64,000 bases of DNA, taken from positions 1 to 64,000 of the IMG/VR virus record IMGVR_UViG_3300041409_000157; one strand, given 5' to 3'. This stretch comes from a virus. The notes under the pieces were generated by a model, which was not told the origin of the DNA, made no database searches, and was given only the letters and a program-made list of their open reading frames with translations. This document shows, piece after piece, positions 19,520 through 20,059 of this stretch (position 1 is the stretch's first letter; the number at the start of each line of letters is the position of its first letter). The position numbers and the translations under genes are program-made.

Positions 19520-20016
19520 GGCTAAATTCGTCGCGCTTTTCTACTCTCTTACGGCCAGTGCTAGCAGTTACACCACTAGAGCGCGCCAACTAGGCGGGAT
19601 TCCAACCCGCACCTGCCGTCTAAATCTTCTCTCCCCACCAGGACCCCGGGAACCGCTCCAGCAGACAAGCTGGATACATTTGTACGACCAGCAGTCCCCG
19701 AGGCCGGGGTGGGGAGAGTTCGCTGAAGTGAGCAGCGGAAGTCCGGGCGATTTCACCACGGGCCTAGGATGGTGGATCTTTTCGTAGACCGGGCGGAACC
19801 GCTGCTCAACTCAACGAACTCTCAAAGAGCGCCTCGCTGCACGCAGGCAGGGAGGCTTTAGCGGCACGCCGTCTTACGGAGCGACCTGCGAACGTGCCTG
19901 AAAGATTGCCCAGACCACCGTCACCCGTCAGCTTAGGGTGTGAAGCGGAGCCGACAGAAGCACTGGCCAGTGGGCATCTGGTGTTCCAGTGGGACAAGTT
20001 GTTCGTCCGCTTCACA
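19520..20016 (-). ncRNA. Putative ~500-nt structured RNA (or RNA cluster)
   Basis: No credible ORF; at least five multi-helix domains; promoter TTGACG-N16-TAGTCT at 20050-20023; ends approximate. Confidence 0.6.
19551..19619 (-). ncRNA. Circularly permuted tRNA-like module (YrlA-type order: T arm, closed acceptor stem, D arm)
   Basis: ACGGC-AGGT-GCGGG(TTGGAAT)CCCGC-CTAG(N10)CTAG-TG-GTGT(AACTGCTA)GCAC-TG-GCCGT. Confidence 0.75.
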
Positions 20017-20059
20017 GGGGTGAGACTACACCTCCCCGCACCACCGTCAAGGATGTTTC

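Follow-up and report, generated by a model that had tools for sequence, protein, structure and literature searches.

A plausible lineage-specific structured RNA with a permuted tRNA-like module upstream of the replication initiator gene of an uncultured soil phage

Transfer-messenger RNA (tmRNA) can be phage-borne, and ROOL and GOLLD RNAs, which occur in phages and prophages, are often located beside tRNAs. The latter two are large (500-800 nucleotides, nt) structured non-coding RNAs (PMC12286853), and YrlA RNAs have a 5' motif, GNCGAAN0-1G, and a Ro-binding stem (PMC4201824). Here we analyse a gene-free gap of 634 nt (19426-20059) in the genome of an uncultured soil phage, IMG/VR record IMGVR_UViG_3300041409_000157. 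The gap lies between a small gene with an HExxH motif and a DnaD-like replication initiator gene (rep), both on the minus strand; all positions are those of the window, i.e. the whole stretch of DNA analysed, the first 64 kb (64,000 nt) of the 72,116-base pair (bp) record. This stretch is probably a structured RNA, and a lineage-specific structured RNA of unproven function is a plausible description of it. None of the known families fits; as the nearest analogue the tRNA-like domain of YrlA may be named, but in the present case Ro is lacking and the RNA around the module is much larger. Transcription, the ends of the RNA, the fold of the module and any partner or function are what we infer.

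When the whole region was folded as minus-strand RNA, the predicted energy reached -233 kcal/mol, in comparison to -196.5 +/- 6.9 kcal/mol for shuffled sequences (z-score -5.30), and none of 100 shuffles was as stable; for the plus strand the corresponding z-score was -3.38. In a genome-wide scan of 276 segments of 520 nt, corrected for GC content, the minus strand of 19501-20020 ranked first with a z-score of -3.30 (the runner-up reached -2.33), and the plus strand of the same segment fell outside the top eight. A control gap (30113-30795) folded as its shuffles did (z-scores 0.85 and -0.03). Thus, structure on the minus strand clearly exceeds chance. Almost all of the excess comes from two long hairpins, A and B (Table 1), the second of which gains 15 kcal/mol when folded as minus-strand instead of plus-strand RNA (-63.0 versus -47.8 kcal/mol). 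Among the 17 inverted repeats of the window with arms of at least 16 nt, these hairpins are second and third in arm length, and the only longer-armed one (37849-37986, 33-nt arms, 73% complementary) is found at another gene boundary. A preliminary sequence-only reading of this DNA had proposed a multi-domain RNA of about 500 nt, and every helix listed there is present in the sequence, on the minus strand. Its structure above chance was confirmed, but its multi-domain character was not: because the other domains fold at or near chance level, that impression is owed mainly to the two long hairpins.

The gap stretch is non-coding. Both flanking genes show strong periodicity of GC content at third codon positions (GC3), which is absent at about 19420-20020. 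At E<=1 Pfam gave no match for any of the six open reading frames (ORFs) inside the gap, and the largest of them, encoding 117 amino acids (aa), had no match among 1.84 billion protein representatives. These results agree with the earlier statement that there is no credible ORF here, and no conserved ORF covering the region was found.

The pattern of mismatches in the two hairpins bears on the strand on which selection may act. At their 54 ungapped positions there are 45 Watson-Crick pairs, six G-U pairs (as read on the minus strand), three pyrimidine-pyrimidine oppositions and no A-C; the 25-position arms of hairpin A (19823-19799 and 19738-19714) contribute 22 Watson-Crick and two G-U pairs and no A-C, and hairpin B contributes 23, four and none, respectively. 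In a decaying DNA palindrome, G-U and A-C are expected at equal frequency, and the binomial chance that all six transition-type mismatches would be G-U on the minus strand is about 0.016. This bias, together with the higher stability of hairpin B as minus-strand RNA, therefore favours selection acting on a minus-strand transcript. The minus strand had been taken for the RNA strand previously, and both the G-U bias and the minus-strand excess of folding speak for that choice.

The same data bear on the possibility that the region works in replication at the level of DNA, as an origin, as a single-strand initiation or primosome-assembly structure, or by way of a transcript which activates or primes an origin, in analogy to ColE1 RNA II and to transcriptional activation of the lambda origin. 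Its position immediately upstream of a replication-initiator gene would suit such a role, and so would three iteron- or operator-like repeats (19405-19496), the presence of three of the strongest inverted repeats of the window within 800 nt, and the fold of single-stranded DNA, which is unusually stable for both strands (z-scores -4.20 and -3.37). Because of this last result, a DNA-level role is only weakened by the mismatch pattern; nevertheless, six G-U pairs out of six are what one expects of RNA and not of a duplex protein-binding site. Moreover, the region has neither an AT-rich unwinding stretch (GC content is 0.58-0.61 across it) nor multi-copy direct repeats within 19505-20016, and a better origin candidate, with GC content of 0.51 and hairpins, is available inside rep at 18750-19100. 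We therefore regard a replication element in the gap as quite improbable. The segment 18750-19100 falls in the part of rep that encodes a linker, and it includes a hairpin with 17-nt arms (19018-19075) and a palindrome (18899-18918); by analogy with the lambda O gene, it may represent an origin located inside the initiator gene.

Positions of the main elements and their folding z-scores are collected in Table 1. The 11-bp stem proposed for the 5' end exists in the sequence but does not belong to the favoured fold: it is absent from the minimum-energy structure, where a competing domain forms instead, and enforcing it costs 3.5 kcal/mol. Two predicted contacts reach across the borders of the structured part. 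One is a long-range helix between 19902-19896 and 19511-19505 (probability 0.93), whose 3' strand is inside the promoter-like site P2, and the other is a 10-nt alternative partner of 19950-19941 within the upstream gene, at 20109-20100. The two long helices have in common the sequence CUCUC (19718-19714), in which competition and a possible switch had been seen. The overlap is there, but it comprises only 5 nt and is resolved without strain, as in the minimum-energy fold CUCUC is assigned to hairpin B and the upstream GAGAG is paired locally, with high probabilities throughout. Thus, the modelled fold does not support a regulatory switch, and there is no other sign of two functional states. 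A 12-nt palindrome, CACUGGCCAGUG, occurs in the 5' domain at 19972-19961, and GCGCGC occupies the loop of the acceptor-like hairpin at 19586-19581; both of them could pair with themselves. In addition, 19968-19959 in the 5' domain is perfectly complementary to 19562-19553 in the tRNA-like module.

Table 1. Location and properties of the features of the gap and of its flanking genes.
Feature	Positions	Strand	z-score, minus strand	z-score, plus strand	Description
Upstream gene	20060..20479	-			139-aa protein with HExxH motif, phrog_1365 (no assigned function)
P1	20023..20050	-			TTGACG-16-TAGTCT; TTGACG at 20050-20045, TAGTCT at 20028-20023; predicted +1 near 20016
5' domain	19903..20016	-	-2.26	-0.70	Alternatives: 11-bp stem, or minimum-energy hairpin 20008-19992 plus domain 19975-19908
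11-bp perfect stem	20016-20006 with 19949-19939	-			Begins at predicted +1
Linker	19826..19902	-	-0.48	-0.84	Small helices GGCACG/CGUGCC and GCCUC/GAGGC; chance level
GGCACG/CGTGCC helix	19898-19893 with 19868-19863	-
GCCTC/GAGGC helix	19856-19852 with 19835-19831	-
Long helix	19823-19799 with 19738-19714	-			25-nt arms, 88% complementary
Hairpin A	19720..19817	-	-4.63	-4.11	8+10+4 bp, branched tip; pair probabilities 0.79-0.99
Hairpin B (CTCTCCCCACC/GGTGGGGAGAG domain)	19629..19718	-	-7.52	-5.66	29-nt arms, 79% complementary; 27 pairs allowing G-U; encloses two inner helices; 11+16 bp flanking a 2x2 internal loop, tip of two small hairpins; probabilities 0.96-1.0
tRNA-like module	19551..19619	-	-0.91	-1.10	Circularly permuted; local YrlA (RF02553) match; chance-level folding; order: closing stem ACGGC/GCCGU, variable AGGU, T-arm GCGGG-UUGGAAU-CCCGC, acceptor-like hairpin CUAG-[10]-CUAG, D-arm GUGU-AACUGCUA-GCAC
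P2	19490..19517	-			TTGACA-16-TACGCT; ahead of rep; likely 3' limit of the RNA unit
rep	18592..19425	-			Replication initiator, DnaD-like, HTH_36 domain

Both contacts crossing the borders of the structure, into P2 and into the upstream gene, would be in accordance with a cis-acting part of the rep operon, namely intercistronic hairpins of the RNase III type which, like those of T7 early transcripts, process or stabilise the message, or else a long regulatory leader, with transcripts from upstream or from P1 read into rep. The element and the two genes flanking it share one strand, the structure is not separated from rep by any terminator-like site, and hairpins A and B are interrupted duplexes of about 22-27 bp, as is typical of RNase III substrates. 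However, a processing site would need far less than about 500 nt and at least five domains, and no other hairpin listed for the window combines arms of at least 25 nt with at least 79% complementarity. Furthermore, rep seems to have its own promoter-like site, P2, and the tRNA-like module would be left unexplained. A cis-acting element of rep is thus possible but rather doubtful. The hairpins resemble the T7 R sites, RNase III targets that are likewise long interrupted intergenic hairpins on the transcribed strand; the candidate presented here differs in that two hairpins, each of 90-100 nt and branched at the tip, stand side by side within a gene-free unit of 500 nt which is provided with a promoter-like site.

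Comparison with known RNA families gave negative results, in agreement with the preliminary reading, which had recognised no known family. Rfam cmscan over the window produced no match at the gathering score, and at E<=10 over 19000-20600 it gave 11 weak matches, mainly to generic hairpins of the microRNA type. ROOL, GOLLD, OLE, RNase P, group I and II introns and small ribozymes were not matched even among these 11 sub-threshold cases. ARAGORN called neither tRNA nor tmRNA genes in the window, and there was no Rfam match to either of them at E<=10. A search of open-access literature revealed no description of such an RNA. With ROOL and GOLLD the candidate shares large size and phage origin, but its structure consists mainly of two plain long hairpins and not of ornate multi-junction folds, and it has no known relatives. 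With tmRNA, including the two-piece permuted form, it shares a tRNA-like domain attached to a larger structured RNA. It differs from tmRNA in that the acceptor end of the module is closed, because of which the module could not be charged, and in that no tag reading frame was identified.

The module itself, whose presence had been noticed before, shows a permuted order of T-arm, acceptor hairpin and D-arm which aligns to YrlA, and its GC-rich T-arm-like hairpin is the only one of this kind in the genome. The local match to the Rfam YrlA model spans model positions 22-89 and scores 16.1 bits (gathering cut-off, 69); with YrlA searched as a single family over the whole phage genome, the E-value was 0.053, and in none of five related phage genomes did this model find any match at E<=10. 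As in YrlA, a stem encloses the variable region, the T-arm, a closed acceptor-like hairpin and the D-arm, and the T-stem GCGGG/CCCGC agrees with the family consensus. Positions of tRNA tertiary contacts, as deduced from the sequence using standard tRNA numbering and the YrlA rules given in PMC4201824, are compatible for U8-A14, A15-U48, G18-U55, U54-A58 and G46-G22, and the 19-56 elbow pair is retained through a double swap, with C19 facing G56. It is by this G56 in the T-loop and C19 in the D-loop that the module departs from YrlA, as well as by an acceptor stem of only 4 bp and by the approximately 400 nt of additional structure upstream of it. No Ro60/Rsr gene (TROVE, PF05731) was detected in the complete phage genome at E<=1, a regular-expression search for the Ro-binding motif GNCGAAN0-1G over the minus strand of 19500-20060 gave no match, and the module is flanked on either side by purine-rich sequences which are unable to pair, leaving no Ro-binding stem. 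For these three reasons the module, which would work like YrlA, is not a member of that family.

Parts of the module were also used as search patterns. An 18-nt T-arm pattern matched eight loci in viral_contigs, apparently ordinary phage tRNA genes; when five of these eight were run through ARAGORN, a tRNA bearing the T-arm was called in two (L007 and L008). A combined T-loop and D-loop pattern retrieved 21 loci, coding-like or otherwise unrelated when inspected by eye, and a 21-nt pattern of T-arm plus CTAG had no match in metagenome_contigs. The tRNAs of other IMG/VR phages (L005; L007, 2560-2636; L008, 5056-5133) have a T-arm identical to that of the module, with the T-loop UUGGAAU (G56) and with C19 in the D-loop, i.e. 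the same swapped elbow pair, and they are ordinary, non-permuted tRNAs. Likeness of the 5' half of the module to these tRNAs is at most a lead, as its score of 11 was not above shuffles (maximum 12). A phage attachment site (attP) carrying the 3' half of a tRNA was also considered; it is unlikely because neither tyrosine nor serine recombinases were found in the phage (PF00589 and PF00239, no matches each at E<=1).

Identity of the T-arm to that of ordinary phage tRNAs raises the question of a non-functional relic, that is, a decayed remnant of the site where two tandem phage tRNA genes met, with the 3' half of the first tRNA ahead of the 5' half of the second, accompanied by inserted inverted repeats similar to miniature inverted-repeat transposable elements. 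Such an origin would be consistent with the chance-level folding of the module and with the absence of the element from all relatives examined, and dimeric tRNAs can give false YrlA matches, as stated in PMC4201824. On the other hand, the two supposed tRNAs left no flanking remnants, pairing remains perfect in both arms and between the strands of the anticodon stem, and the hairpins occur only once in the genome. The G-U bias indicates selection at the RNA level, and a near-identical copy was found in a second study, where a 151-nt contig of one run covers 19866-20016 with three differences. That contig shows only that close kin exist elsewhere. We consider a relic hardly probable.

With respect to relatives, this phage is nearly an orphan. 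blastn of the RNA against the phage collection found no match, and rep, the 139-aa protein and the terminase, used as single queries against viral_contigs, genome_contigs and phage records, gave only distant DnaD matches. In a set of 5.8 billion proteins, rep and the 139-aa protein retrieved only themselves, on two contigs, the second of which is near-identical; the terminase retrieved 58 proteins (best non-self match 75%, most at 63% or less). An alignment of 24 of these 58 terminases fetched 80 viral loci, one genome locus and 80 metagenome loci. blastn and nhmmer, applied to all 80 viral loci and to the 81 others, found no homologue of the RNA (19341-20060). Covariance models built from the single sequence, one for the module (R1) and one for hairpins A and B (R2), were run on the 80 viral loci and on 64 of the 81 others, the remaining 17 being taken as duplicates of viral loci already searched (same lengths and match coordinates), and only chance-level hits appeared. 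The best hit of R1 scored 21 bits (L074, L141 and L142, 2226-2289), with the acceptor hairpin missing and pairs mismatched, and the best hit of R2 scored 17.5 bits. When whole records of ten relatives were searched, neither model had a match in any of them, five of these records being fragments of 26-62% completeness.

Gaps beside the p182 homologues in relatives are of low complexity and unrelated, and in L036, L041 and L045, the nearest relatives that possess a rep homologue, rep comes straight after the terminase gene, with no such gap. As far as can be seen from the relatives examined, the element is lineage-specific. In the same three loci ARAGORN reports a 'tRNA-???' with a 2- or 4-nt anticodon (13066-13140 in L036 and L045, 3036-3110 in L041), which falls within an ORF of 91 aa that directly follows rep and one further ORF (HNH-like when viewed by eye). 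Either the call is wrong or this may be an unusual tRNA-like element.

Directly ahead of the structured part is P1, the promoter-like site TTGACG-16-TAGTCT, which is present where it had been described. Sites of the type TTGAC-N17-19-TANNNT occur three times in 64 kb, a number within the ordinary range (expectation 1.22; three are also attained in 12 of 100 shuffles), and two of these three, P1 and P2, are inside the 634-nt gap, both on the minus strand. The pattern was derived from P1; for one of the two remaining sites to fall in the gap as well, the probability is about 0.01. Three sites resembling GTGACTCAG(C/T)GT are placed around the start of rep and P2, at 19405-19418 (+), 19470-19483 (-) and 19483-19496 (+); they resemble operators or iterons and belong to the neighbouring context outside the RNA.

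The interpretation which we favour, tentatively and with the odds still somewhat against it, is a minus-strand structured RNA of about 500 nt, made from P1, which would owe its stability to hairpins A and B and would include a permuted tRNA mimic with a role in trans. According to this model, transcription would proceed from a host-type P1 near 20016, co-directionally with the early and replication genes nearby, and the folded RNA would have a modest domain at its 5' end and, after it, two long hairpins of very high stability. The latter may confer resistance to nucleases and might serve as handles for a protein or for RNase III. The 3' domain would be a circularly permuted tRNA mimic with its acceptor end closed, its anticodon stem open and its elbow of T-loop and D-loop intact. 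Because no terminator was found, the 3' end is assumed to arise by processing, or else transcription would read through past P2 into rep. The elbow module could then engage in trans a host factor recognising the tRNA shape, with tRNA-modifying or tRNA-processing enzymes, or a tRNA-directed defence or decay machine, as candidates. A more far-reaching version, in which the locus would represent a new class of large phage non-coding RNA, a Ro-independent permuted tRNA mimic with stable hairpins and palindromic loops (GCGCGC and CACUGGCCAGUG) expressed early from a host-type promoter as a decoy for a reader of tRNA shape, appears unlikely at present.

Several results weigh against this RNA acting in trans from its own promoter. 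The tRNA-like fold is not predicted and enforcing it costs 9.2 kcal/mol; taken alone, the module has -19.7 kcal/mol as drawn and -27.9 kcal/mol at its minimum, with a z-score at chance level, and its YrlA score is far under the cut-off. No homologue was found, and with it no covariation. The unusual stability of both strands as single-stranded DNA, and the clustering of three strong inverted repeats around the replication gene, may also point to a DNA element. The -10 hexamers are weak, TAGTCT of P1 agreeing with TATAAT at three of six positions, and a consensus promoter scan found no sites in 18500-21000. There is also no terminator-like site at the 3' end of the structure. Moreover, the host may not use signals of the sigma-70 type; classic Shine-Dalgarno motifs are scarce (11 of 34 genes, with crudely assigned starts), which makes the promoter calls soft.

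Even so, the element is a single-lineage candidate for which thermodynamic and strand-bias support is good, and it offers a well-defined target for follow-up. If real, it would be a permuted tRNA mimic in the style of YrlA without Ro60, inside a far larger phage RNA, and it would extend tRNA mimicry by phages past ordinary tRNAs and tmRNA, implying a partner in the host. A scan with Pfam and PHROGs of 55 of the ORFs in the window (49 of them outside the gap) detected no RNA-related partner proteins.

The genome in which the element resides has a GC content of 59.6%, carries direct terminal repeats and is rated 100% complete in the IMG/VR record. Among public sequencing runs, a soil metagenome, which may be its source, is the only one to contain it in full, and no RNA run was listed among those matching it. 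The version of rep present in the protein database has 249 aa, which fits an internal ATG start at about 19341. Upstream of the HExxH gene, the GC3 phase in 20560-20800 suits a 94-aa ORF (20513-20797, minus strand) better than a 157-aa ORF (20454-20927, minus strand), and for this reason the call of the latter may be wrong. The phage encodes a terminase large subunit (phrog_2), and the majority of its proteins have no family match; one of 243 aa (25801-26532, plus strand), which also has no match in Pfam, contains a long run of Cys-rich repeats of the CSGCSR type. In a 3155-aa protein (51881-61348, plus strand) the N-terminal part of about 300 residues matches DarB-like antirestriction families. 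Two further proteins encoded on the minus strand contain a response-regulator receiver domain (44616-45161) and an FtsK gamma domain (33715-34548).

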